A stretch of 64,000 nucleotides of DNA. Origin: Escherichia phage T5. Both the position numbers and the translations under genes were made by a program. The stretch lies in the sequence record AY692264.1; one strand, 5' to 3'. Positions 1-40,189 of the stretch are shown piece by piece. The notes below the pieces were generated by a model that made no database searches, was not told where the DNA came from, and was given only the letters and a program-made list of their open reading frames with translations. Numbering within the stretch: position 1 is the stretch's first letter; every line of letters starts with the position of its first letter.

Positions 1-123
1 TGTCCACTGCCTCCGGCGAAAATACTTAGTCTGCTAACCGCCACCCCCGTTACTATTACCATGCTAACTGTTTCACCCTGCAACCATTTTAATTGCAGGG
101 TGAAACAATTTCAACTTTAATTA

Positions 124-858
124 TTACGCAACTTTTAATTTCTCAATATATTGTTGCGGGCTGCAACTATATTCTGCGCGTTCTTCTTCGGTCATACCTT
201 CCCAACATAATTGCAGGCGGTCGGCTAGGAACTGATAATCATTATCATCCTCAAGAGATTCATCAATAAAGGTTTCACCTATCAATGTCACGCCGATTGA
301 TAGAATATCATTAACGGCTTGTGCGTCCAGCGTTTTAAATCCGTATGACGCTGCCGCTGATAGCACGCCTTTATGATCATCAATCATTGTAAAATCAGCG
401 TTCGGATATAATTGTTTGAATAGCCCAAAATAGTAACTTTTATAAACTGCGTCTTTGCTGTGGTATATCTCGCTAACTTTATCAGCCTCAAAATATTTGT
501 GTAGTGTATCGCGGGAAAATACACGGATATTACTATCACCACGACCGCGCAACCCTTGTTTACGCAAATAATAATAGTCCGACTTGCTCATTAGTCGAGC
601 GGTGCAAATAATGTTTAAAGTATTTGCGTCATTCATGCACTGGCGCATATATGTAACAAGGGGCAATAGTGTATCTTGCATTATTAAATCATGTTTGCAG
701 GCTTCATTTTTATACTTATTTAAATCTAAATTGCCCTCGCTATCAAAGCAAGGCGCTACACGATGAAACGAATTAATGATAGTGCCGTCCAGATCCCAAA
801 TCATGACGCGGGAAATATGCGGGAAATTACGGGTAATATTCGTTTTAACTTGATTCAT
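124..858 (-). CDS. dmp: HAD-superfamily phosphatase, probable 5'-deoxyribonucleotidase (dmp-like)
   Basis: 244 aa ORF with HAD motif I (WDLDGT) near N-terminus; first gene of pre-early block upstream of A1/A2 as in T5. Confidence 0.6.
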   Translation of the reverse strand: MNQVKTNITRNFPHISRVMIWDLDGTIINSFHRVAPCFDSEGNLDLNKYKNEACKHDLIMQDTLLPLVTYMRQCMNDANTLNIICTARLMSKSDYYYLRKQGLRGRGDSNIRVFSRDTLHKYFEADKVSEIYHSKDAVYKSYYFGLFKQLYPNADFTMIDDHKGVLSAAASYGFKTLDAQAVNDILSIGVTLIGETFIDESLEDDNDYQFLADRLQLCWEGMTEEERAEYSCSPQQYIEKLKVA

Positions 859-938
859 TTTGTTACGTTCTCCATTTGAGGGATTAGATTAATTCAGCAT
901 TACCCGCTATTAAATAGCGGGTAATAATAAATTAACTA

Positions 939-1334
939 TTAAAGGCCATACGCTAGCGCATCAGCGATAAAACTAACATCCTCGCCCGATACGCTGGAAC
1001 GAATGCCAGCGCATGTATACACCTTTGCGCTCATTAGCTGATCATCAAGGCAAGCGGGGCAAGGTGCGACTACTGCGAAAGCTAAACCGGATTTTACCGC
1101 GTCAATAATGATTGTTTCCTGTTTCATAGTGTCAACATAAACACCTTTTGCTTTAATATGGCTTGTTAGTTTGCCCTGCATATATGCAAACGTTGTAACT
1201 TGCATCGCGTCATTGAAATCTAATAGCTCATCAATAACGTGACCGGCCTCGACGTGATAACGCTGACCATTAGAATAAACCAGAACAATAGAAGACTGAG
1301 CGCGATCGAATGGGATACGGTTAGATTTAGCCAT
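939..1334 (-). CDS. hypothetical pre-early protein
   Basis: 131 aa ORF co-oriented with pre-early block. Confidence 0.45.
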   Translation of the reverse strand: MAKSNRIPFDRAQSSIVLVYSNGQRYHVEAGHVIDELLDFNDAMQVTTFAYMQGKLTSHIKAKGVYVDTMKQETIIIDAVKSGLAFAVVAPCPACLDDQLMSAKVYTCAGIRSSVSGEDVSFIADALAYGL

Positions 1335-1370
1335 GTTTATAACTCCAATTAGTTTAATAAGGGATTTAAT

Positions 1371-1649
1371 TTATTTGCTAGCTTCAAGACTTACAACAAA
1401 AGCGAGATTTGTTTCTTTCCATACGTCAGGAATATCATTTTCCTGTAAATGGTCTTTCGCTTCATACTCATTTTCAAAAGAATAAAAATCGCCGGACTCA
1501 ATTATATAAATATGCCCGTTTAGTTCATTTTGATAAATATAACAATTATTATCTTTTAAATTGCGGTATACAGTACCATGCCGTAAAACATCAAGCGACC
1601 ATGTATCAGCGGTGTTTTTCATGCTGGGAAGATTAATTTTAATAGCCAT
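1371..1649 (-). CDS. hypothetical pre-early protein
   Basis: 92 aa ORF, tight spacing with neighbours. Confidence 0.4.
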   Translation of the reverse strand: MAIKINLPSMKNTADTWSLDVLRHGTVYRNLKDNNCYIYQNELNGHIYIIESGDFYSFENEYEAKDHLQENDIPDVWKETNLAFVVSLEASK

Positions 1650-1705
1650 TTAATTTAGCTCCTGTAATAGCGGCTATATCTCAAGCCGCTAGGGGAATAA
1701 TTTAA

Positions 1706-3376
1706 TTACGCAAAGAATTTACCATTCTTAAAGTCAATCAAAGTGCGTTGACCGTTTGCATAGGTAATAATATGCGTTTGAGTCCAGCTAGACGCGCCAA
1801 CGTTGTAACCCATGTCCAGACTACCAGTCACGCCAGCGGTATAAACGCCGCCGTAAATGCTGGCGGTGTGGGTGTGTCCGGTGTTTAATTTGCCCAATTT
1901 CTTAAACTGTTTCGGGTTGCCACGGCTCCCGTTAATGCCGTTGTGACCGTGTACGCCGCATTCAATGCCTGCAATCTTGAAAGATTGGTCAGTGGTCAGG
2001 AAAATGGCGTTAAATTCACAGCCTGCAACCTTGCGCAGCGCATAATCAAGCACGTTAAAAGTATCGTCTTTTTCTGCAATAGCTCCATAAATCGCAGCAT
2101 TCAGGCGGTGATATAGTTCCGCGTTTGCTGGGTCGTCTTTAATGTTAGCATTACGATCATCTAACCAGCGGGATAGCGCCAGATCATGATTAGATTCAAC
2201 AATGATTGTTTGAGAAAAATCACGCTCCATTGATTCCAGTACGCGCCCCGTATCGATAAGATCATCTAATACCTTATCACGTCCGGCGGCATATTGTTTC
2301 GCTAGGAATACGCCAGATGCGCGGTTGTGATGGTTGCGTGATGTAAAATCATGCACGTCGTGTACAAACTGATATTTTGGTTTAAGAATATCAACAAGCC
2401 CGTAGGTGTCACCATGCCCCCAAGACGCAGCGGCGCACTCCTCATCTAATTTTTCAGCGTGAATGTCGCCATATTGTAAACCTAAAACGTGCCCCGTTGT
2501 TTCATAACATCCGGCAGGAGTGGCGCAAGTATTCAAATCATAAAACACGCCGCTCTCGTCCATCGTTTCAAGCTGGCGCACAAAAAACTCACCGTCCTCG
2601 TCAAACTCAACAATAAGCGCACCGAAGTTATGCAGCGCCTCGGCCTTTTGTCCTGCTTTCTGCTGGATGTAATTTTTTAGCGTTGCCGTTCCGGTTGAAT
2701 ACATACGGCGCACAATTTCACCTTTTAAAGCTGGCACGCTTTCGGCGGTGATTTTAGCCGCTCCAATTGCTAGACCTTCAAGATTCAGCGCGGTTGCAGT
2801 TTCAGCGAATCCAGAAAGCGGATAATCTGCGGTGGGTAAAACGTTAATTTCAGCCATGAAAGCAAATCGGCGATTATTTAAAAACACGTTTTTATTGCAG
2901 ATATATTTGTCAAATGCGGAATCGTATCTGATACCGTCGGCGCCCTCGCCATTTTGAAAACCGTTTTTGTTATAGATAAACTTGCTAACCAGCAAATCAG
3001 CGCCGATAAATTGGGCGTATTGTTCAAGTGAGGCTAAAAAGTTTTTATGCGGGAACGTATTATTCTGAATCGATGTAATAATAAAGCGTTTACCTTGTTT
3101 TACTTCCCATTGCTCAACCGTGCTAGAAACAATCCCCGCCGCTTCTGGGCGCTCATCGTTTTTAATGGCTTTTGCTACTTTCGCCGCTTTCGGTTTCGCT
3201 GGTTTATTTGCTTCCAGCCAGTCACAAATTGCGGTAGAGTGTTTTGTTGTATCGTAAACCATTTTTGAAATATCGTCGCAAACTTCCAATTTAGTAGCGC
3301 GCAGACGTTTACCGTAGAAATTAAAGTCAGCGGCCATTTTCAGGATAACGGTTTGTTTTTCTGCGGAAATAACCAT
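1706..3376 (-). CDS. A1: A1 protein, calcineurin-like metallophosphatase-fold nuclease
   Basis: 556 aa, same length as T5 A1; metallophosphatase motifs GDIH, GNHD-like, GHTH; followed by 135 aa A2-like ORF. Confidence 0.7.
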   Translation of the reverse strand: MVISAEKQTVILKMAADFNFYGKRLRATKLEVCDDISKMVYDTTKHSTAICDWLEANKPAKPKAAKVAKAIKNDERPEAAGIVSSTVEQWEVKQGKRFIITSIQNNTFPHKNFLASLEQYAQFIGADLLVSKFIYNKNGFQNGEGADGIRYDSAFDKYICNKNVFLNNRRFAFMAEINVLPTADYPLSGFAETATALNLEGLAIGAAKITAESVPALKGEIVRRMYSTGTATLKNYIQQKAGQKAEALHNFGALIVEFDEDGEFFVRQLETMDESGVFYDLNTCATPAGCYETTGHVLGLQYGDIHAEKLDEECAAASWGHGDTYGLVDILKPKYQFVHDVHDFTSRNHHNRASGVFLAKQYAAGRDKVLDDLIDTGRVLESMERDFSQTIIVESNHDLALSRWLDDRNANIKDDPANAELYHRLNAAIYGAIAEKDDTFNVLDYALRKVAGCEFNAIFLTTDQSFKIAGIECGVHGHNGINGSRGNPKQFKKLGKLNTGHTHTASIYGGVYTAGVTGSLDMGYNVGASSWTQTHIITYANGQRTLIDFKNGKFFA

Positions 3377-3417
3377 AATAATAAAACTCCATTAAAGGGA
3401 TTAAAAAACGTTTGTTA

Positions 3418-3433
3418 TTGGCAATATTGCCAA
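3418..3433. promoter_or_regulatory. perfect 16-bp palindrome TTGGCAATATTGCCAA upstream of A1
   Basis: exact self-complementary 16-mer about 40 bp upstream of the A1 start codon; adjacent hairpin AACGCC-N9-GGCGTT at 3438-3459. Confidence 0.5.
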
Positions 3434-3472
3434 ATATAACGCCTTGAATAATAGGCGTTATAATTTGCAACA

Positions 3473-3670
3473 TTAATTTAAAGGCATAAGGCTAGAACTA
3501 ACACCACAAGCAACGGCGGCAATAAAACAAATCAGACCTAAACGCTTTGCTAACTTAGATTTACGTTTAAAATAATACGAATCTAAATCATTTTGAAAAT
3601 AAGCGAACAATAACGAGGCCGCCATAATAAACAAGCCTAGAATGAGGGATTCAGTAGGGTAAAAGATCAT
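3473..3670 (-). CDS. small membrane protein
   Basis: 65 aa ORF with two hydrophobic segments. Confidence 0.35.
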   Translation of the reverse strand: MIFYPTESLILGLFIMAASLLFAYFQNDLDSYYFKRKSKLAKRLGLICFIAAVACGVSSSLMPLN

Positions 3671-3726
3671 TTTAAAACTCCAGTCAAAGGGAAATTATAG
3701 TGGGGAATATTCCCCACTAATTAAAT

Positions 3727-4134
3727 TTATTCGCCTGCGGCTTGTTTTACTTCATCGGCAACGCCTAACAGTTGCGCCACGGCGTCCAGCGTTTCCAATT
3801 TTGCACTTTCCAGTGATGCCAGATCGTCAGCGTCTTTGATAATACCGGAATCGATGGCATGTTTTGCAATCACACGCACGTAGTGCGCTTTGCGGATAGA
3901 ACTGCCGCCGCCAACCTTGCGAGGTTTATCGCTTTTCTGATACGCTTTCGCGCTGGTCAATTTTGAGCGAACAGACACGGGAGAAGCCGCGCCAACTGCT
4001 TTTGCAATCTCTTTTAAACCGTCGCTATTTGCGAAATCTAAACCGTTTTCATTAATTAACTGCTGGTACATGGAAACAGCTTTCTGAGTGTTTTCTTCAT
4101 TCCAAGCGAATTTTGCGGTTTTAGCGTTAGTCAT
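3727..4134 (-). CDS. A2: A2 protein (DNA-transfer associated, pre-early)
   Basis: 135 aa ORF immediately upstream of A1 in transcription order, matching the T5 A2-A1 arrangement and size. Confidence 0.65.
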   Translation of the reverse strand: MTNAKTAKFAWNEENTQKAVSMYQQLINENGLDFANSDGLKEIAKAVGAASPVSVRSKLTSAKAYQKSDKPRKVGGGSSIRKAHYVRVIAKHAIDSGIIKDADDLASLESAKLETLDAVAQLLGVADEVKQAAGE

Positions 4135-4170
4135 GATGTAACTCCTGTTTATTTAATTTAAGGGATAAGA

Positions 4171-4218
4171 TTAACATAATGTTAATCGTTATATCCCCCG
4201 AACTACTAGGGGATATAA
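4171..4218. promoter_or_regulatory. palindrome TTAACATAATGTTAA plus 10-bp inverted repeat TTATATCCCC/GGGGATATAA
   Basis: seen directly between A2 start and upstream ORF stop; candidate operator or terminator hairpin. Confidence 0.4.
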
Positions 4219-4229
4219 AAGTAACACTA

Positions 4230-4481
4230 TTACGCTACGGCTTCCCATTTTTCGTTACGCTGGGCAACCTTTACAACGTCGCCGGATTTAACCCGAACGT
4301 TGTAAACAGTTTTTCCGTTGTTACTCCGTTCCGTTTCAGCGTATACCGCATCAATTACATCAAACGGCATAAGCGCCGCGCCTTTAATGCGTTCGGTTTT
4401 TCCGGTTACCTCATCCGTTTTAGTAACGAAAGGGATAAAAACGGATTGACCAATTTTTGGCGCAGTAGTAACGTTTTGCAT
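4230..4481 (-). CDS. hypothetical pre-early protein
   Basis: 83 aa ORF. Confidence 0.4.
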   Translation of the reverse strand: MQNVTTAPKIGQSVFIPFVTKTDEVTGKTERIKGAALMPFDVIDAVYAETERSNNGKTVYNVRVKSGDVVKVAQRNEKWEAVA

Positions 4482-4683
4482 AATATAAACTCCAGTTTAT
4501 TAAGGGGGATTGTTCCGCATTACCTGCTGTAAAAGTAGTGGCAGGTAATAAGCAACAATCCGCTCGCCAATATAATCAATTTAAAGAACTCCACTCAGGC
4601 CGCTATATCCCAGTTAGGGGGCGGGACACATTATGGTAAGTGCCGACCGTCATATTTTATCAAGTTATCGCTCTCATCGAACT

Positions 4684-4974
4684 GGGTACATCTTAAAGCC
4701 TATCGGCTAGGGTGTCAAACTATTTTTTGCAGTTTTTTATGATTTTCTTTCAAGTCAATCATAATGTTTCGCCAGATCATTTCCAGACCTTGCTGGCGGC
4801 CTTTCTTGTACTGCCTAAATCGATATTTTACCGATTGCTGGGCTATTGTCAACAATTTTTTAGTAGTACCATCTAATTTTTTAGCTGGTTTACCAGTGAT
4901 CAATAAAGTTTGTTTCATATCGTCGATTCCTTATAATATATAAGTTTACCGCCGATAGACTTTAAGATGTACCC
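4684..4974. repeat. 24-bp inverted repeats (23/24 match) flanking a 243-bp segment
   Basis: GGGTACATCTTAAAGCCTATCGGC at 4684-4707 and its near-exact reverse complement at 4951-4974. Confidence 0.6.
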
Positions 4975-5410
4975 AATTTTTAAAGAGCGTGGCGGTAAAC
5001 TTCCCGCCGTGTAGTTCGTCATTGCCGCCCTACGAGATAAATAATAGGGGATACCCAAAAATGGCGCAACCTTATTTTTGTAAAGAAACGTAAAGAAGGC
5101 AACACGTCCGGCGCTCACCTAAGTTTAAAGGAAACGGGCGCGCGAATACCATAAAACCTAGCAGGTTGGCAAGTAATTTTTTCCTTTATATTTGCCTTGC
5201 CCTAGTTGACAAATCTTAGAAAGCTCGTGGTGACGATAAACGGGTTATCCCCTTATGATGGGATGCCTGAAAAATTTACCGCGTCAGAAAGCGTTTTAGG
5301 CGGCTTATTTTCGATTTAACAAATATTTAACAAAAGCAAAATTGAAAAATAGTTGGAAAAGATATTGACTTTTAAAAATCAAGACTAAACGAGTTATTTT
5401 ATAAAATTAA

Positions 5411-5929
5411 TTAATTGACAATTCCAAATTCAGCTTTTTTAGTTTCTACCCATAATAATAACTCTTGTAAATCATAACCTGATTTACTAACACTTTTGTT
5501 ACTAGTAGGATCTTTAACTATAGCGCGCAAATAGTTTCTTCCGTTATTATCAACTCTAGAACCATTATAATAGATATGCTTAGGCAACTTATTAGCACGC
5601 TTATAATCTTTCTTGTTATTCATATTCTGCTTATGGTCTACTAAGCGAAGATTATTAATGTTATTATTAGCACGGTTACGATCATTATGATCGATTGTTA
5701 GATTGCTATCAATCTCACCATTAAATAATACCCATATTATTCTATGCACTGCGTATTGTTCGCCTGCTAACTTTACTCGATAGTAACCTGTGTTACTATA
5801 ATGCCCTGCAATATCACCCACCTTACTATTACCTTTCTGTACTTTCCATCTTAGAAATGATGGGGATGTTTCATCATAATAAAAGTTATCATTAGCAAGC
5901 GAATAATCTATATCTTTAAATAGACCCAT
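5411..5929 (-). CDS. HNH homing endonuclease
   Basis: 172 aa; HNH-type motif ...DHNDRNRANNNINNLRLVDHKQN... Confidence 0.65.
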   Translation of the reverse strand: MGLFKDIDYSLANDNFYYDETSPSFLRWKVQKGNSKVGDIAGHYSNTGYYRVKLAGEQYAVHRIIWVLFNGEIDSNLTIDHNDRNRANNNINNLRLVDHKQNMNNKKDYKRANKLPKHIYYNGSRVDNNGRNYLRAIVKDPTSNKSVSKSGYDLQELLLWVETKKAEFGIVN

Positions 5930-6186
5930 TGTTATAGTTTCCTTATGTTATTAATTTAATCTCTATTATATTATATCAAAACCATTAGCAAACTACCTAA
6001 TGAGTTTTTCAGGTTTAATTAGCAGACTCATAATCACTTTAAAATCCTATTAGCCAACTAACTATATTTTGTTATATAATAACTGCATAAATTAGTTAGT
6101 GAGAAACACTATCATTTAAGTTATCCACAGCCTTATACATTTTGTAAATTAACTTGACACAATAGGAAGGCTTTATAGCACTTTTA

Positions 6187-6228
6187 CACAGACTTATCCA
6201 CAGGTTATTCCACTGTATAAATATACAG
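6187..6228. repeat. DnaA-box-containing repeat, left copy (inverted relative to 9411-9460)
   Basis: TTATCCACA boxes at 6121-6129 and 6195-6203; 16-mer CTGTATAAATATACAG at 6213-6228 identical to 9411-9426. Confidence 0.6.
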
Positions 6229-6443
6229 GGTAAATGGAAAACATATTATAATGATGCCCAAAATAAGCGGCCTAAAACGCTTTCTAACGAGCAAAACGCT
6301 ATAGGGTAATATTAAAGTAAAGCCTCAACGCGTCGCCCTGGTGGCTTCGCCGTGTTTTGCTCTTTACTATACCGCTGCGCGGTTAGCATAAAACTAGGCG
6401 CTAGGCAAGGAAAATAAAAAGGTAAAATAATATTTGCCTATGC

Positions 6444-6473
6444 TAGAAAATTACCTTTATCATTCACTCACCG
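6444..6473 (+). promoter_or_regulatory. candidate sigma70 promoter for plus-strand module
   Basis: TTGCCT, 18-bp spacer, TATCAT upstream of ORF 6495. Confidence 0.3.
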
Positions 6474-6494
6474 ATTAACGAGGGAGGCCAACAA

Positions 6495-7505
6495 ATGCGG
6501 CTATATAAACCAGATAACGCAACCGTCTTAAAGGGCGCCTTGCGCAACCTGCTGGATGGTAGCAGGACAACCAGCATTAAACATTTTATTAACAAGGCTG
6601 AAACTATTCACCAAAACTTTTTTAATGATTATGATGCCTATGATATGGATAGTTTTCTACCCCTATATAAGCAGGGGGCAACGATTATCTTATATAATCG
6701 TGATTGCCATATCTTTACGGGCAGGGGAGCGGGGCCGGATACTGATTTTATTGTTGCGCAGGGTAATAATATCGTTGCGTATCATAGCAATTCAGGCCGT
6801 CAATCATTTAATATAAATAATTTTGAGCTTGTTGGGCTTGAATTAATAAACGGACTTTCTAGCCTTGAGGGATTTTTAGATGTTATCTGGAAGTATTTAT
6901 CTGCTGGATGGCATAGACCTGATAGTGATGGATCTCAATATACGGCTGTAATGGCTTTTGATGGCGACGGTAATTTTTTATTACCATCGGAATTATATCC
7001 GTATGTATATAATGAGCTAGTACAAGAAGCGGGTTTTATTTTCTGGAAAGATGAGAATCAGATCATTGACAACACGGAAAAACATGCTGTAAATTCTAAC
7101 ACTCAAAGCGTTAACACTCAAATCACTGAAAACAAAGGAAAAAATGCCATGACCAAGATCGCTAATATCGTTGCCGCTAATAAATCCGCCGTTGTAAATG
7201 CTGCAAAACTGGAAGCGGGCAAAATTGCATTAACTCAAATCACGAAAGTAGCGGCTAAAAAAGCACCATTTATGATTAAAGGTTATATTGATACGCCTAT
7301 TGGTCGGGTAGTTATTGCTAACCTGCTGAGCGTAGCGGTTGACCAGTACGCCCCTAGCAACCAAAAGGCGAAAGCGGTAGCGGGTGCAGCTATGGAAGCG
7401 GCTATGCTAGAAATGGTGCAAAGTTTTAACATCGCTGAAATGATTGATGAAATGGTGAAAGGTATTGATATTTCTACTTTTACCGTTAACACCGAAAGCG
7501 AGTAA
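6495..7505 (+). CDS. hypothetical protein
   Basis: 336 aa ORF with GGAGG RBS; C-terminal Ala/Lys-rich region. Confidence 0.55.
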   Translation: MRLYKPDNATVLKGALRNLLDGSRTTSIKHFINKAETIHQNFFNDYDAYDMDSFLPLYKQGATIILYNRDCHIFTGRGAGPDTDFIVAQGNNIVAYHSNSGRQSFNINNFELVGLELINGLSSLEGFLDVIWKYLSAGWHRPDSDGSQYTAVMAFDGDGNFLLPSELYPYVYNELVQEAGFIFWKDENQIIDNTEKHAVNSNTQSVNTQITENKGKNAMTKIANIVAANKSAVVNAAKLEAGKIALTQITKVAAKKAPFMIKGYIDTPIGRVVIANLLSVAVDQYAPSNQKAKAVAGAAMEAAMLEMVQSFNIAEMIDEMVKGIDISTFTVNTESE

Positions 7506-7533
7506 TAATTAACCTAATGTAAAGTTTTGTAAA

Positions 7534-7560
7534 GGTCGCCATAATCGGCGGCCTTTTTTG
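7534..7560 (+). terminator. rho-independent terminator
   Basis: GGTCGCC-N5-GGCGGCC hairpin followed by TTTTTT. Confidence 0.55.
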
Positions 7561-7590
7561 TTATAATGCCTTTACACCGTTTGAGGACGG

Positions 7591-7854
7591 TTGAAAATTT
7601 TCCCAAAATTTTGGAGGCTTAAAATGGTTGCTTATTCTTCTTCTGACGCTCTTTTCACTGGAAAAGGCTGGGTATCAAATCGCTGGATCATTCAAGAAAT
7701 GGTGCAGGAGTTCGGCATTGCTAAAACTTACACTACCATTCAGGCGCTTTATGATAATGATCAAATCGATCAGCAAACGGCGGGCTTTTTGCTGGATACC
7801 CTGAAAGCGGAACACTGTACTAAAAAACAAGCCGCCAAAATTGTTTTAATGTAA
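7591..7854 (+). CDS. hypothetical protein
   Basis: 87 aa ORF. Confidence 0.45.
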   Translation: MKIFPKFWRLKMVAYSSSDALFTGKGWVSNRWIIQEMVQEFGIAKTYTTIQALYDNDQIDQQTAGFLLDTLKAEHCTKKQAAKIVLM

Positions 7855-7903
7855 TTAATAACGGGGCGTTACTTTCGCCCCACTAACTAGGGGAGTATTA
7901 CAA

Positions 7904-8083
7904 ATGGTTATTTTTCGAGCTATTCTGGCAGGTATCTTGGGCGCTATTCTGACCCTTTTTGCTACCGCTTACGGTATTCAAGATTCTTATTGTGGTTTAG
8001 TAAATACTAAACCTATGGTTATTATTGGCGCGGGTATCGCTGTATTTTCTTATCTGCTGGGCTGCATGAATAAAGGAGAATAA
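7904..8083 (+). CDS. small membrane protein (59 aa, below ORF-track cutoff)
   Basis: read manually: GGGGAG RBS then ATG; two predicted TM helices (MVIFRAILAGILGAILTLFATAYG...). Confidence 0.4.
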   Translation: MVIFRAILAGILGAILTLFATAYGIQDSYCGLVNTKPMVIIGAGIAVFSYLLGCMNKGE

Positions 8084-8085
8084 AA

Positions 8086-8298
8086 ATGATCCGCAACGTT
8101 TCTCTTGCTCGTTCAAAGGGTTTTAAGCTGGTGGATGTTAACACATTCGAGCGGGAAGATTGTAAAATCGAATATGTAGCACGTAATAAAAACGCCTTTC
8201 GTGTTACAGAAAAGAAATTTGATAAGCGCGGCAACGTGATAGCTGAAACGGTTAAACATTTTGCCACCTTTTACGCGGCTTTTCGTGGAGTGTTATAA
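8086..8298 (+). CDS. hypothetical protein
   Basis: 70 aa ORF with AAAGGAG RBS. Confidence 0.45.
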   Translation: MIRNVSLARSKGFKLVDVNTFEREDCKIEYVARNKNAFRVTEKKFDKRGNVIAETVKHFATFYAAFRGVL

Positions 8299-8299
8299 A

Positions 8300-8644
8300 A
8301 TGGTAATTTATGAAGGCAATCGCTTTGTTGCTATTTGCCGACCGGGATTATTAGCAAACTACTTAAATCAGGTGTCACCTGAATATAAAGGCGTCATTAA
8401 TATTTATGAGGGCAAGGCGCATTATAAGATTAATGCGGTCGTTGCCCGTGAATTAGCATTTCAATTTTTGACTTTCGCATCTTGTGATATTCAGGTCATG
8501 GGTGAAGCGTTAATTGCAGAAAATGAAGATGATTTTATTAATATCTTCCGCAAGGTATACACCGAGCGCCTGATAATGAAAGGCGCATATATTCAGTCAA
8601 CTGCGGAAAGTATTGAAACAGCTTTCAGAAAGGTGGCGCAATGA
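8300..8644 (+). CDS. hypothetical protein (start adjusted to internal ATG)
   Basis: ORF 8261-8644 in track; ATG at 8300 directly follows upstream stop. Confidence 0.4.
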   Translation: MVIYEGNRFVAICRPGLLANYLNQVSPEYKGVINIYEGKAHYKINAVVARELAFQFLTFASCDIQVMGEALIAENEDDFINIFRKVYTERLIMKGAYIQSTAESIETAFRKVAQ

Positions 8645-8953
8645 AGCTATATATTTTCGTTGGTAATGTTGAGGCTGCGAATGATTCCGCTGGTGGCGAT
8701 AACGTTCGCCACTATTGGCAAAAATATATTTACTAGGGTTATTATGATTACACTGATTTGCGTTAAAGCCGAAGGCGACACGATAGCGCGAGAAGGGCAA
8801 AAATATAAAGCCCAAAAAGATCAATTACTCAAAACAATTGAGCGTTACAAAATACCCGATCTCAAGTATTCCGTAGTAGGACGCGATGGGATTCTAAGGG
8901 CGACACTTGAGAACGCTATCTTTGAGATAGTCAACTAATAACGGGGCGTTATT

Positions 8954-9157
8954 ATGAGCAATAAAATTATTGTGACCAAAACTACCACAATGGTAGACGT
9001 TTTTTATGTGCCCGATACGCCGGAGAATCGGGGAGCGGTCGAGCGGGGCGAGTATGATAGCGTTATTTATGATGCCGATGGTTATTATCAGCATTTGGTC
9101 GATTCCTACGGGGAAGAGGAGAAGATCACGCATCGATTACCCGAGGGGGATTTATGA
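8954..9157 (+). CDS. hypothetical protein
   Basis: 67 aa ORF. Confidence 0.4.
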   Translation: MSNKIIVTKTTTMVDVFYVPDTPENRGAVERGEYDSVIYDADGYYQHLVDSYGEEEKITHRLPEGDL

Positions 9158-9272
9158 AACGATGGTTTAATCACTGGTATAAACGGTTTTTAGTACGGCA
9201 TCGCAAGTCTAGACAGCAAGATGATTGGCGGGAAATGGCAAAGCGTAACAATTGCCCACTTCTCTGATAACC

Positions 9273-9297
9273 GACGGGGATCAGCTCCCCGTTTTTC
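9273..9297 (+). terminator. rho-independent terminator
   Basis: ACGGGGA-loop-TCCCCGT hairpin followed by TTTTTC. Confidence 0.6.
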
Positions 9298-9410
9298 ACG
9301 CCTCCAGTTAAATCCCCCTTTGTTTTAGTATCCCCATCAAAATTAAACGCGTTAGAATGCGATCTAGGACGTTTTAGGCATATATTAGAATTATTCACTG
9401 CGTAGGAATA

Positions 9411-9515
9411 CTGTATAAATATACAGTAGGATAACCTGGGGATAAGTCTGTTGATAACGCTTCAAAATGGCTAGGATTTTGTCAAGGCGAATCGTGCTGT
9501 TGATAAGTCTGTGGA
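9411..9515. repeat. DnaA-box-containing repeats, right copies
   Basis: CTGTATAAATATACAG at 9411-9426; GATAAGTCTGT(T/G)GATAAC at 9441-9458 and 9493-9510; TGTGGATAA DnaA box at 9507-9515. Confidence 0.6.
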
Positions 9516-9547
9516 TAACTTAAATAACAGTGTTTCTCACTTCCGTT

Positions 9548-9730
9548 TTTAAATACGAATCATTATCATTCGTATTCCGCTTTTTAAATGAGAATCATTC
9601 CGCTTTTTAAATGAGAATCATTTCACTTCCTGAATAGTTCTCATTCCCTTTCTTAAATGAGAATCATTATCATTTGCATTTCACTTTTTAAATGAGATTG
9701 ATTCTCATTATCATTCGCATTCAGGCGAGC
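9548..9730. repeat. direct repeats of about 19 bp (TTTTTAAATGAGAATCATT), about 5 copies
   Basis: seen directly; irregular 22-43 bp spacing; no regular spacer structure. Confidence 0.6.
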
Positions 9731-9749
9731 AGGGCAATTGCCCTGCGCT

Positions 9750-10500
9750 TTTGTGCAAATCCGACATTTGCCCCCATGGATTACGCGTGGGCGTGTATGT
9801 GCAAATCCGACAATTTTTGGTAGTGTGCGAATCCGACCCGAAAAATTTTTATAGTGTGCAAATCCGACAATGAATTTTCCCAAAAACTCCAGCAATCACG
9901 AACTGCGTTCGAATCCTGTGGAATTAGCTAGAGTATGTGCAAATCCGACATGTGTTGAGATGTGCGAATCCGACAAGATTTTTGTGACTTCGATGGGAGG
10001 GTGTGTGATTGTATGGGTTTGAGGGGAAGATGAGAGAGCGAGAGAAATTTGGGAGGCTAGAAGGATATGGGCGCAGGATTGGTGCGGAGCACCTGATTTG
10101 CGGGGATTTTGGGGAAGAGTTGAGATAATTTGGGAAGATTTGAGATAGGTGCAGAAAAAGTAAAATTTTATTAGCTAAAGGGGGCAAAATAGCTTGACAA
10201 GTGAAAATTTCTGTGGTTCTAAAAACTCAGGCAATCATGGGCCTTCGGCCCGAAATAATGCTGCTATTTTCAGGAGAGTAAGAGTTCCTAAAAACTTAGG
10301 CGTTTGTGCAAATCCGACCATAAATTTCTAGAAACACAATGTGCAAATCCGACAGTAATTTCTGGAAATGTGTTTTCAAAAAATGTCTTCTAGAAATAAC
10401 CGCCCTCCCTATAACCGCCCTGTATTAAACCGCCTATTGCTGGAGTTTCTAGGAACATGAAAACTGCCCTAGAGTATGTGCAAATCCGATGAATATTTTT
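9750..10500. repeat. array of about 9 copies of 14-bp motif TGTGC(A/G)AATCCGAC, all same orientation
   Basis: copies near 9754, 9795, 9822, 9853, 9938, 9961, 10303, 10331, 10478; extra copy inside ORF at about 12151. Confidence 0.65.
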
Positions 10501-10850
10501 GTGTGATCCCTAGAATTTATACTTATCAATTTCCTAGAAACTCAGGAGTCTAGAAGAAAGTGTTGTGCCATCCTAGCAGATGAGCGGCAACAGGTGTATC
10601 ATCTTGAATGTAAATTATATGGTCAAAAGTTTTACTTTTATTTTAAATATAAGATCCCCCAGGGTTCTCATATAGAGCTTTGCCCCCGCCAGAAGGTCTC
10701 GTGATGTTTCTAGTAATTTATATTAAATTACTTATTAACTTGTCCTATCGCTCCGTATCCTCCGCTACAAGTTAGTAATTTTAAATTACTGAACCACCAC
10801 ACCTTCTGTGTGGCAACTCTAAATGGTTAATTCTATTAACTCATAGAGTT

Positions 10851-10879
10851 ATGATAACATACATTTAGCTATCTGTCAA
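10851..10879 (-). promoter_or_regulatory. sigma70 promoter (TTGACA-17-TATCAT) firing into noncoding repeat region
   Basis: minus-strand read TTGACAGATAGCTAAATGTATGTTATCAT; no ORF over 20 aa downstream for several hundred bp. Confidence 0.5.
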
Positions 10880-10935
10880 CGAAAGTTTGTATTTGAGTCT
10901 CGGTACAGGTATTGTGCACCGAGATATGCAGAGTA

Positions 10936-37851: not shown

Positions 37852-38130
37852 TTATCTGCCGACCATCTTAGCTTGTTCTTCATCAGAAACGTATTGATAT
37901 GCACCCTTGTTATACGCCGGAGCAGTGCACATCTTCTTACGCTCAATTTCTTCTTGAGCTTTACGTTCACGTTCTGCCAATTCCTCATCCAGATAAACTA
38001 AACGTTGTTCTGGAGGAGGTGGAAGACGTGTTTCTGGCTCACCAATATTAGCCTTTCTTATTTGACGAGGTGATTGTGCACGTTTTCTCAACGGTTTAAA
38101 TCCTAATGAATTTGAGTTATAAATTCGCAT
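37852..38130 (-). CDS. hypothetical protein
   Basis: 92 aa ORF. Confidence 0.4.
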   Translation of the reverse strand: MRIYNSNSLGFKPLRKRAQSPRQIRKANIGEPETRLPPPPEQRLVYLDEELAERERKAQEEIERKKMCTAPAYNKGAYQYVSDEEQAKMVGR

Positions 38131-38157
38131 AAAGCCCTCCTCACTTTCAATACGAAT

Positions 38158-38186
38158 ATTATACTAAATTAGAGGGCTTTAAGCAA
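38158..38186 (-). promoter_or_regulatory. T5-type early promoter (TTGCTT-17-TATAAT)
   Basis: ATTATA 38158-38163, AAGCAA 38181-38186. Confidence 0.7.
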
Positions 38187-38206
38187 GAAGATTTTTAATT
38201 TATTTA

Positions 38207-38695
38207 TCACATCTCGGCCATTTCAGCTTCAGTAATAACTGTGTTACACAATGCATCTACAGCTTCATTACCACTAATACCAGAATGTCCTTTAACCTTA
38301 ATAAAGGTAGGATTAGTATTGTGGAAGTTAATGTATTGCTGGGTTAATTTAAATGCTTCTTGCCAAAGTTCTAGATTAAGAGGAACTTCACCATCTGCTT
38401 TCTTCCAGCCTTTCCTTTGCCAAGAGAACATCCAGCTTTCCATACCATTTTTGCAATAAGCAGAATCAGTATAGATAACAATTGGTCTATTATCTTTTTT
38501 AACTGACCAACGTAGAGCTTCTACAATAGCTGTGAGTTCCATCTCATTATTTGTAGTTTTAGGACTATAACCAGATTTAGAGCCTAAACGATCGTCGTTA
38601 TCATCATAGACAATAAAACCCCAAGCACCCGGGCCAGGGTTGGACTTACAAGCGCCATCTGTATAAACATGGAAAACTGACATTATTTGCTCCAA
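38207..38695 (-). CDS. rnh: ribonuclease H
   Basis: 162 aa; RNase H1 signature (YTDGAC ... ELTAIVEAL ... YTDSAY ... GHSGISGNEAVDAL). Confidence 0.85.
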   Translation of the reverse strand: MEQIMSVFHVYTDGACKSNPGPGAWGFIVYDDNDDRLGSKSGYSPKTTNNEMELTAIVEALRWSVKKDNRPIVIYTDSAYCKNGMESWMFSWQRKGWKKADGEVPLNLELWQEAFKLTQQYINFHNTNPTFIKVKGHSGISGNEAVDALCNTVITEAEMAEM

Positions 38696-38744
38696 TTAAT
38701 AGTTACCCAATAGCCTTCACGCTAATTATGATCAAGTAAAATAT

Positions 38745-38774
38745 ATTATATTTGAAATTATACCTAATAAGCAA
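38745..38774 (-). promoter_or_regulatory. T5-type early promoter (TTGCTT-18-TATAAT)
   Basis: ATTATA 38745-38750, AAGCAA 38769-38774; GCCC-loop-GGGC hairpin at 38791-38810 between thyA stop and promoter. Confidence 0.6.
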
Positions 38775-38816
38775 GTACAATTTCAAATATAATAGCCCCC
38801 GAAAGGGCTATTTGAG

Positions 38817-39656
38817 TTAAGAAGACATCTTAGCTTTAAGAGCTGGGTGAGGATCGTACCCCTCTAAATGGAATGACCAAGCTGCCGTATTATTTTCTAG
38901 TAAGTCGTAAAGATCTACAAATTCTGGCATTACTAGAGTCGGTAGAGGGCGTGGCTTGCGTTTTACCTGTTCTTCTACCTGTTCCATGTGGTCATTATAG
39001 ATATGAGTATCACCGCCACTAAAGATAAGATAACGAGGTTTTAATCCTGTCAGTTTTGCTAATATATGCGTTAGCAAAGCATAGCTAGCAATATTGAAAG
39101 GTAAACCGAGGAAACAATCCACAGAGCGTTGTGTCCATTTAAGATCTAGGTATCCATCGTTACTTACATAGCACTGGAAGCCGTAGTGGCAAGGGGGTAA
39201 TGCCATTTTATCAAGTTCAGCTACGTTCCATGCAGAAACTAGATGTCTGCGGCCATGAGGATTATTCTTGAGTCCTTCAATAAGTTCTAGAATCTGATCT
39301 CGCCCACCAAAGTTACGCCACTGTTTACCATATACTGGTCCTAGATTACCCTTATCATACCCCATACTTATAGCTTGGTCTTCATAATTTGGAGTCCAGA
39401 TGGTCCACTGTCCTTCGTCACGACCAAATGTGAATACACGTAGATCATGAAGATTTGTGGAACCAGACAAGAACCATAAAAGTTCTCCTACTACTGATTT
39501 CCAGGCTAGGCGTTTAGTAGTTACAGCCGGGAACCCTTCACGTAGGTCAAACTTAGCATAGGAATCAAAAATTGAAACTGTGCCCGTTCCTGTACGGTCA
39601 TTACGGGGTTCACCTAGTAAAATTACATCTGTCAAAATTTTTAAGTATTGTTGCAT
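38817..39656 (-). CDS. thyA: thymidylate synthase
   Basis: 279 aa; conserved ThyA blocks including PPCH active-site region. Confidence 0.9.
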   Translation of the reverse strand: MQQYLKILTDVILLGEPRNDRTGTGTVSIFDSYAKFDLREGFPAVTTKRLAWKSVVGELLWFLSGSTNLHDLRVFTFGRDEGQWTIWTPNYEDQAISMGYDKGNLGPVYGKQWRNFGGRDQILELIEGLKNNPHGRRHLVSAWNVAELDKMALPPCHYGFQCYVSNDGYLDLKWTQRSVDCFLGLPFNIASYALLTHILAKLTGLKPRYLIFSGGDTHIYNDHMEQVEEQVKRKPRPLPTLVMPEFVDLYDLLENNTAAWSFHLEGYDPHPALKAKMSS

Positions 39657-40189
39657 TAATAAGTAACCAATTCCTGTACAAATCGCAGGCTGTTATCACT
39701 GTTTGCGCCAACTGCATAGACTAATCGAGTGGATTCATAGTTATAATCCAGTATCATACTATCTAGGTGTGTATCTGCTTCTAGTTTCTGCTCGCTAAAG
39801 ATTGTAGATACAAAAGCACTTTCAATATGCCCATGTTGGTACATTTCTAGAAGAAGATTAGCTCCACCTAGAACTACTGTTTGCTGATCTTTTAGAAAAG
39901 TAGGTAATGTATCACCTATCATTGATATGGGAGTGTAAATATCGTGTGTAATATCATCTGGCAGTGGACGATCAGCACGAATAAATAGGTCAGAAGCCCC
40001 AATCATACGTTCCCTAACGGCATATGGAAGAGCTAAATAAGTACCTGCCCCAATAATAATATTATCAGGATTTAGTACATCTAATTGTGAATAAAAAGCA
40101 TCTAGTTCTTCTTTAAAAGAACCCCAGGGAAGCTTACCTCGGAGGCCGAACTCCCCATTCGGCCCAACTGCATACATTGCTGTAATCAT
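39656..40189 (-). CDS. frd: dihydrofolate reductase
   Basis: 177 aa; N-terminal MI-A-AV-G...LPW motif; follows thyA as in T5. Confidence 0.65.
   Translation of the reverse strand: MITAMYAVGPNGEFGLRGKLPWGSFKEELDAFYSQLDVLNPDNIIIGAGTYLALPYAVRERMIGASDLFIRADRPLPDDITHDIYTPISMIGDTLPTFLKDQQTVVLGGANLLLEMYQHGHIESAFVSTIFSEQKLEADTHLDSMILDYNYESTRLVYAVGANSDNSLRFVQELVTY

Follow-up and report, generated by a model that had tools for sequence, protein, structure and literature searches.

Inverted arms with phased DnaA boxes and LexA-operator-like palindromes flank an accessory pre-early gene cassette in the terminal repeat of phage T5

Results

Inverted arms in the left terminal repeat

A 64,000-nucleotide stretch of Escherichia phage T5 (AY692264.1), referred to here as the window, contains two long inverted arms that flank a block of plus-strand pre-early genes, T5.011-T5.017. 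The region 5800-9900 of the window matched AY543070.1 and NC_005859.1 at 100% identity and at the same positions, 5800-9900 (megablast), and window numbering therefore equals T5 genome coordinates. The arms and the cassette between them belong to the left terminal repeat (1-10219), which according to the AY543070 annotation is the first-step-transfer (FST) DNA, the part that is first into the cell. A repeat search returned two inverted-repeat pairs, 6098-6136/9503-9541 (39 nt, 92%) and 6188-6228/9411-9451 (41 nt, 88%), which when joined formed two imperfect inverted arms of 131 nt with an ungapped match of 93/131 and a diverged centre in each arm. The left arm is located between the leftward hegG promoter (5938-6012, minus) and the rightward 011 promoter (6411-6489, plus). 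The right arm falls within the annotated injection stop signal (iss, 9140-10149), a position from which a role in cis in stopping first-step transfer is predicted.

The bracketing elements are already known and their detection here is a rediscovery: they are the published T5 terminal-repeat elements IRC-spacer-IRD on the left and IRD'-spacer-IRC' on the right. AY587007 annotates the inverted repeats C, D, D' and C', which correspond to window positions 6098-6136, 6188-6228, 9411-9451 and 9503-9541 (offset -76 to -79 nt), and labels the right-arm 20-mer as 'palindrome D'. Davison 2020 (bioRxiv 10.1101/866236, 'Phage T5 two-step injection') described the 131-bp IRCspacerIRD and IRD'spacerIRC' with eight DnaA or DnaA* boxes, seven in T5, paired with a 3-bp gap, and a constant spacer of 52 nt. 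The element was conserved in 25 T5-like phages, the region between the arms and the inter-arm distance were variable, and the left copy was absent from 'Type 4' phages. According to that study DnaA boxes in the iss were first noted in a 1987 paper; it presents a model in which injection is halted by membrane-bound DnaA. The object described here is the same in length, 3-bp box gaps, spacer (~51-52 nt), placement of the right copy in the iss and variable interior. A first-pass annotation of this DNA, made from the letters alone, had suggested an equivalent of the T5 injection-stop region and a protein-bound boundary. The former was borne out, as the DNA is T5 itself, the right arm is inside the iss and both arms are published elements, and a protein-bound boundary is plausible from the motifs. 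Three points are added to the published description, namely a palindrome of LexA-operator grade, an 011 gene that is inverted and not missing in Sugarland-type phages, and arms that evolve without concerted evolution; the first two seem new.

DnaA boxes and the architecture of the arms

The perfect box TTATCCACA occurred three times in the 64 kb, in each case within an arm, at 6121 (plus), 6194 (plus) and 9510-9518 (minus). The first-pass annotation had rightly placed three DnaA-consensus boxes in mirror-arranged segments, but gave two of them as 6195 and 9507. Four of the nine strict TTWTNCACA boxes of the 64 kb were inside the 262 bp of the arms (Poisson P ~7e-8). With the three one-mismatch boxes also found there, the arms were strongly enriched for boxes with at most one mismatch (Poisson P 2e-9).

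The arms were compared across the terminal-repeat regions of GenBank phages and 72 IMG/VR loci anchored on A1, from which 34 distinct arm pairs were aligned. The 28 distinct pairs from phages with A1 at least 90% identical are referred to as T5-type. One architecture was common to 34/34 pairs and consisted, from the inner end outward, of the palindrome CTGTATAwwTATACAG, GGATAACC, TGTGGATAAg-tc-TGTGGATAAc, an arm-specific spacer, a second box pair and TTAAATAACAGTGTTTCTCACT, the outer end of each arm being AGTGAGAAACAC. The spacer was ~51 nt by our own count and carries TGTCAAG / conserved TTGACA. A promoter in the arm spacer was considered and rejected, as TTGACA was kept in every arm but was without an acceptable -10 element at 16-18 nt when the alignment was read by eye. 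No Rfam family for a structured RNA reached its gathering score within 5300-10900.

Just outside the right arm, arrays of TTTAAATGAGAATC-type and GTGCAAATCCGAC repeats occupy 9539-9722 and 9745-9975, and the major nick is annotated at 9748/9749. At its outer end the left arm (GAGAAACACTATCATTTAA, 6097-6119) showed complementarity to the 23-nt repeats of the iss as well (TTAAATGAGAATCATT, 9584-9710), and the outer arm ends and the iss direct repeats may share one common motif. On the inner side, the flanks of both arms (6229-6294 and 9345-9410) had CTAAAACGC...TCTAACG / CTAAAACGC...TTCTAACGCG-type motifs in common, and the CTAAAACGC...TTCTAACGCG-type motifs were kept from T5 to Sugarland, Eos and the My1-like phages.

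A LexA-operator-like palindrome at the inner end of each arm

The 16-mer CTGTATAAATATACAG, which the first-pass annotation had reported as identical at 6213-6228 and 9411-9426, was exact at these two sites and was found nowhere else in the window, with ~0.11 matches expected even when two mismatches are allowed. Each copy is part of a 20-bp palindrome, CACTGTATAAATATACAGGG in the left arm and TACTGTATAAATATACAGTA in the right arm. The E. coli SOS-box consensus is TACTGTATATATATACAGTA with a CTG-N10-CAG core (PMC2994835, PMC3009722); the right-arm site agreed with it at 19/20 positions and the left-arm site at 16/20. A LexA matrix was made from 18 native E. coli sites (PMC3009722 Table 4), with which the right-arm site scored 26.3 bits compared with 27.7 for the consensus, 24.4 for the best native site, 19.2 for recA and 18.8 for sulA. 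The left-arm site scored 20.2 bits and was the second best of the 64 kb, where the next best reached 13.9. Native sites ranged from 6.6 to 24.4 bits when each was left out of the matrix in turn.

The CTGT-N8-ACAG core was intact in 29/34 left arms and 29/34 right arms, and six of the ten exceptions were a CCAG variant that is also present in the native sites of recN, uvrB and dinI. Both palindromes are therefore described here as putative LexA operators, having the dyad, the AT-rich centre and a score in the native range. LexA or SOS was mentioned nowhere in Davison 2020, and literature searches returned no link between LexA and T5, a mention in the 1987, 2005 and Davison 2015 papers not being excluded.

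The palindrome centre (6220-6221, 9418-9419) was always AA or TT and never AT or TA. The same-strand identity of the 16-mer reflects the orientation of the central AA, which was free among relatives and between arms (19 arm pairs inverted, 15 direct). Such free flipping is as expected for the uncontacted centre bases of a dimer site, and it suggests small hairpin-type flips or an absent constraint at the dyad centre. Promoter-like hexamers overlapped both palindromes, in a scan that was not above background.

Conservation of the arms among T5-like phages

The 131-nt element was identified in 533 phage records, mostly in two or four copies each. Among the 28 T5-type phages right arms were on average 92.9% identical to one another and left arms 86.6%, and spacer identity was 91% (right-right), 77% (left-left) and 58% (left-right). 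Left-to-right arm identity was 76.6% within a phage and 76.4% between phages, indicating that the arms evolve as orthologues without ongoing exchange; concerted evolution or an active flip-flop was ruled out by these values. Inter-arm distance ranged from 1590 to 4624 bp across the 34 arm pairs and the content between the arms was variable, in agreement with the earlier suggestion of a cassette-like segment.

The left arm was truncated in Sugarland-like phages and can be lost from T5. Annor et al. (bioRxiv 2026) obtained a viable T5 mutant without hegG to 017 that formed smaller plaques. The junction primers of that study mapped to 5361-5390 and 9161-9186, which places the deletion at ~5391-9160, and so the whole left arm was removed and the right arm kept. 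As this mutant is viable, the bracket of both arms is not required for infection and T5 does without the left arm. The right arm appears to matter more, given its higher conservation, the truncation or absence of the left arm in some relatives and the deletion of the left arm in T5.

Vibrio phage VCPH (A1 34%, A2 ~31% identical to T5) also had this right-arm architecture, with iteron-like repeats after it. The VCPH arrays, in the same relative position, were made of other repeat sequences of the CAACTGTTGCG and AGTGCGAAA types (positions 10130-10430 of the VCPH locus, L009). In IMG/VR the LexA/DnaA composite motif was found on T5-like contigs only, and a search for a host or plasmid origin of the arm gave no match among 72,556 plasmids and 5,426 E. 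coli genomes.

Inversion of the cassette

When loci were oriented on the right arm, the T5.011 homologue was on the plus strand beside the left arm in T5, Spc35 and phage 1586. In Klebsiella phage Sugarland (36%, E 4e-40), Eos (31.5%, E 3e-40) and vB_Kpn_3 it was on the minus strand, toward the right-arm side. The order and strand of a T5.015-like gene were reversed in Eos too. In all loci with A1 at least 90% identical 011 was divergent from A1, and in all loci with A1 at 66-74% (Sugarland-like, Eos, L048 and My1-sized) it was co-directional with A1. The sole exception to this phylogenetic pattern was vB_Kpn_3 (A1 88%), in which 011 was co-directional. The vB_Kpn_3 record (L007, MZ079855.1) has a Sugarland-like cassette and a split 011 homologue, one part of which is 94% identical to T5; A2 and T5.007 each match in two pieces and the annotations (RecT, DnaD, head morphogenesis) are implausible. 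The record is probably chimeric or misassembled.

Inverted-repeat homology continued ~65 nt inward of the palindrome and the flanks were of two types. The left-arm flank of Sugarland and Eos matched the right-arm flank type of T5-type phages (alignment scores 25-31 vs 8-11), and the marker ATTTTA[AGT]G, which was present in 20/28 T5-type left flanks and 0/28 right flanks, was located at the right arm in Sugarland and Eos. Both flanks of My1-like phages and of vB_Kpn_3 looked R-type and were uninformative on the inversion end-points. Genes and flanks had thus changed orientation as one unit, consistent with recombination inside the arms. Davison 2020 noted open reading frames 'read in the opposite direction', yet described 011-015 as missing and replaced.

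A recombinase domain was not detected in the 17 terminal-repeat proteins, for which Pfam returned only HNH_3 (hegG) and three DUFs. The invertible segment raised in the first-pass annotation was thus partly upheld: Sugarland, Eos and My1-like phages have the cassette the other way round, but 28/28 T5-type pairs were alike. As there is no recombinase domain and no difference in orientation among T5-type phages, the en-bloc inversion is, on these alignments, one old event and not a switch. The comparison with T5-like genomes that had been put forward as a check found variation in the length of the cassette, and in its orientation in some relatives.

The cassette and other features of the region

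The coordinates of the features are given in Table 1. T5.011 (6495-7505) was a full-length member of DUF7566 (E 1e-113, Pfam) and, alone among the cassette genes, had a homologue in the Sugarland, Eos and My1-like lineages; the other six cassette proteins had no Pfam match. In the published descriptions available, 011, 013 and 015 are reported as toxic to E. coli, and A1 and A2 as the only essential pre-early genes, needed for second-step transfer.

Table 1. Positions of the arms, their predicted binding sites and the adjoining features of the T5 left terminal repeat
Feature	Position	Strand	Basis and remarks
Left arm, 131-bp IRC-spacer-IRD	6098..6228	.	Repeat search; AY587007 repeats C, D; names per Wang 2005/Davison 2020
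Right arm, 131-bp IRD'-spacer-IRC'	9411..9541	.	Left edge of repeat-rich injection-stop region; better conserved arm
LexA-operator-like palindrome CACTGTATAAATATACAGGG, left arm inner end	6211..6230	.	Contains 16-mer 6213-6228; CTGT-N8-ACAG; 20.2 bits
LexA-operator-like palindrome TACTGTATAAATATACAGTA, right arm inner end ('palindrome D')	9409..9428	.	26.3 bits
Perfect DnaA box TTATCCACA in IRC	6121..6129	+	Sequence match
Degenerate partner box TTATACATT of IRC box	6133..6141	+	Direct reading; cf. Davison 2020 count of seven, not eight, in T5
Consensus DnaA box pair, 3-bp gap: TTTTACACA (6182-6190) and TTATCCACA (6194-6202)	6182..6202	+	Motif scan
DnaA-like box pair, 3-bp gap: TTATCCCCA (9437-9445) and TTATCAACA (9449-9457)	9437..9457	-	Motif scan; Davison 2020
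DnaA box pair, 3-bp gap: TTATCAACA (9498-9506) and perfect TTATCCACA (9510-9518)	9498..9518	-	Motif scan
Left arm inner flank, 'L-type'	6229..6294	.	Weaker inverted-repeat homology with ~9345-9410; repeat pair 6265-6289/9350-9374; flanks compared in 34 phages
Iteron-like direct repeats of the iss, just outside right arm: 23-nt TTTAAATGAGAATC-type, then GTGCAAATCCGAC	9534..9975	.	Repeat search, annotations
Promoter of rightward pre-early operon	6411..6489	+	AY543070 annotation; experimentally characterised per Annor 2026
Accessory pre-early cassette T5.011-T5.017 (seven coding sequences)	6495..9157	+	Annotation; dispensable as a block
Internal rho-independent terminator after T5.011	7534..7559	+	Annotation
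Cassette-closing terminator, ~115 nt before right arm	9275..9296	+	Annotation

A plus-strand block with its own terminators between the arms, as described in the first-pass annotation, was confirmed (Table 1), but it is not the only such block in the first 45 kb. A second one, T5.077-T5.079 (38064-39671), is located amid the minus-strand early region and has a promoter (P12, 37954-38028) and a bidirectional terminator (39678-39720) of its own. A cassette of the transposon type or similar to a miniature inverted-repeat transposable element was rejected, as the outer flanks aattagtt (6090-6097) and tccgtttt (9542-9549) show no target-site duplication and no transposase domain was present in the 17 proteins.

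T5.014 (70 aa) is annotated in RefSeq NC_005859 as an 'endonuclease nicking abasic sites generated by host uracil glycosylase Ung', the genes at this point being located at 8086-8298 and 8300-8644. The nuclease gene is called '015' in a recent T5 paper, and ORF015 of AY587007 corresponds to T5.014 of AY543070, with three numbering schemes in use. The T5.014/015 annotations may be shifted by one gene.

Discussion

The explanation we favour, for which the chances appear about even, is that the arms are docking sites for host proteins, with the right copy as the functional core, the left copy as a dispensable duplicate and an exchangeable cassette between them. Each arm copy would be occupied by DNA-binding proteins that the host cell already contains ahead of any phage gene expression. 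As a candidate ligand DnaA has been proposed in the literature, and LexA is added here on the grounds of the palindrome. Host ligands are proposed because the motifs are invariant while phage A1 and A2 diverge to ~30% identity, and slowly evolving ligands would be expected. The right copy would be the functional core and form part of the cis region at which first-step transfer comes to a halt, until second-step transfer is made possible by A1 and A2. The left copy would be a more degenerate duplicate and the DNA between the arms an accessory pre-early gene cassette open to exchange. Because the arms are inverted repeats they can recombine to flip the cassette, and homologous recombination between them would have done so at least once in evolution, with no programmed switch.

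A more specific proposal is tentative and is put forward as a possibility on the unlikely side. The T5 boundary would be a composite landing pad, in which a LexA operator is fused to phased DnaA boxes in T5-like phages from Escherichia to Vibrio, and LexA jointly with DnaA, rather than DnaA by itself, would form a nucleoprotein complex on the incoming DNA that pauses transfer or controls the first transcription.

Several observations weigh against a role for these host proteins at the arms. Strict DnaA boxes were not enriched across the window (9 found vs 8.3 expected), and half of the right-arm boxes are off-consensus. No arm or LexA/DnaA composite was found within 10 kb of A1 in 30 distant Demerecviridae loci (A1 38-49% identical). 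According to a 2023 BF23 paper, the arm sites have yet to be studied by experiment. Ejection of the whole T5 genome in vitro without a stop is cited by Davison 2020, and the stop mechanism could be unrelated to the motifs. The iss has been mapped only coarsely, to 9.1-10.1 kb, and the direct repeats on the right-hand side of the arm qualify just as well. Because T5-type phages form plaques on recA hosts, second-step transfer is unlikely to depend on LexA cleavage.

The arms resemble known systems in part. Their palindromes score above or within the range of native E. coli operators, but differ from SOS boxes in their setting, the non-coding DNA of a virulent phage with DnaA boxes alongside; the LexA sites are putative and no SOS-regulated promoter is assigned to them. 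As in the DnaA clusters of oriC, datA and DARS, several 9-mers at or near TTATNCACA occur in fixed phase and orientation within ~130 bp. The predicted boxes of the arms differ from these clusters in their 3-bp gaps, in the absence of an unwinding element, in that half of them are off-consensus and in that no replication role is expected. The Mu G, P1 C and Salmonella hin segments likewise have a gene block between inverted repeats that occurs in both orientations among relatives. In contrast to those systems T5 has no invertase, its arms are long, imperfect and not homogenised, and orientation is fixed within lineages; the T5 cassette would behave like the product of a rare homologous-recombination event and not like a switch.

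It is conceivable, though unlikely, that the arms are not a DNA-transfer signal but operators or insulators under LexA and DnaA control that gate or insulate the toxic cassette, through inward promoters or a block to read-through. LexA operators normally overlap promoters, and an inward promoter-like site with its -35 TATACA inside the palindrome is present in each arm (plus 6222-6249, minus 9417 to 9390). The arrangement TATACA-16 nt-AATAAT (GATAAT in two) was kept in 21/28 T5-type right arms, but this conservation of the -10 is inseparable from the general 90% conservation of the right flank, and a promoter there would read the cassette in antisense, for which no product is obvious. The left-arm -10 was not conserved in most relatives, the spacer TTGACA has no usable -10, and promoter-like matches in the region were not clearly above chance (20 vs 13.5 +/- 3.4 expected). 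The place of the left arm between divergent promoters, the terminator ahead of the right arm and the reported toxicity of 011, 013 and 015 would suit such gating. A role of the arms as targets of the A1 and A2 proteins of the phage, either as recognition or cleavage sites that restart transfer or as sites at which the terminal repeats are processed and circularised, which is the restriction-like part of Davison's model, is judged quite unlikely. All T5-like phages examined had the arms together with A1 and A2, both genes are reported to be essential for second-step transfer, and A2 is a DNA-binding dimer to which sites with dyad symmetry would be suited. A protein and its site would be expected to diverge together, however, and the palindrome and DnaA boxes are near-unchanged between T5 and VCPH despite identities of ~31% for A2 and ~34% for A1. 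The motifs closely match two host consensus sequences, and no A2 site is defined.

The remaining two readings are unlikely on the data. A replication origin or a plasmid-like maintenance site is very improbable. Clustered and phased DnaA boxes do adjoin arrays of 23-nt and 13-nt direct repeats, a combination also found in VCPH, but T5 origins are mapped near mid-genome and the first-step stage lacks the replication genes, according to the summary given in Davison 2020. The plasmid and E. coli genome searches described above returned no arm homologue, and no AT-rich unwinding element was identified. For a programmed invertible segment that switches the cassette within phage populations, in the manner of phase variation, there is hardly any likelihood left. 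A gene block flanked by inverted repeats, both orientations among Demerecviridae and swapped arm-adjacent flanks would be features of such a switch, but orientation tracks phylogeny, with the probable chimera vB_Kpn_3 as the sole exception. The arms do not exchange sequence, no serine or tyrosine recombinase domain was found in the terminal-repeat proteins, and promoter and terminator flip along with the cassette, so that no obvious change in expression would result.

What halts T5 DNA once 8% of it has entered has been asked since the 1960s, and the cis signal is yet to be dissected. The right arm, and not the bracket, is singled out here as the part to mutate, the left arm being known to be deletable. 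The palindrome nominates LexA as a possible second host factor beside DnaA. The inversion corrects the published reading of 011-015 as simply absent from Sugarland-type phages. If the composite landing pad is real, a complex of LexA and DnaA would tie the transfer pause to the SOS state of the cell, and the same inverted repeats would also be the recombination substrates that flip the cassette between phage lineages.

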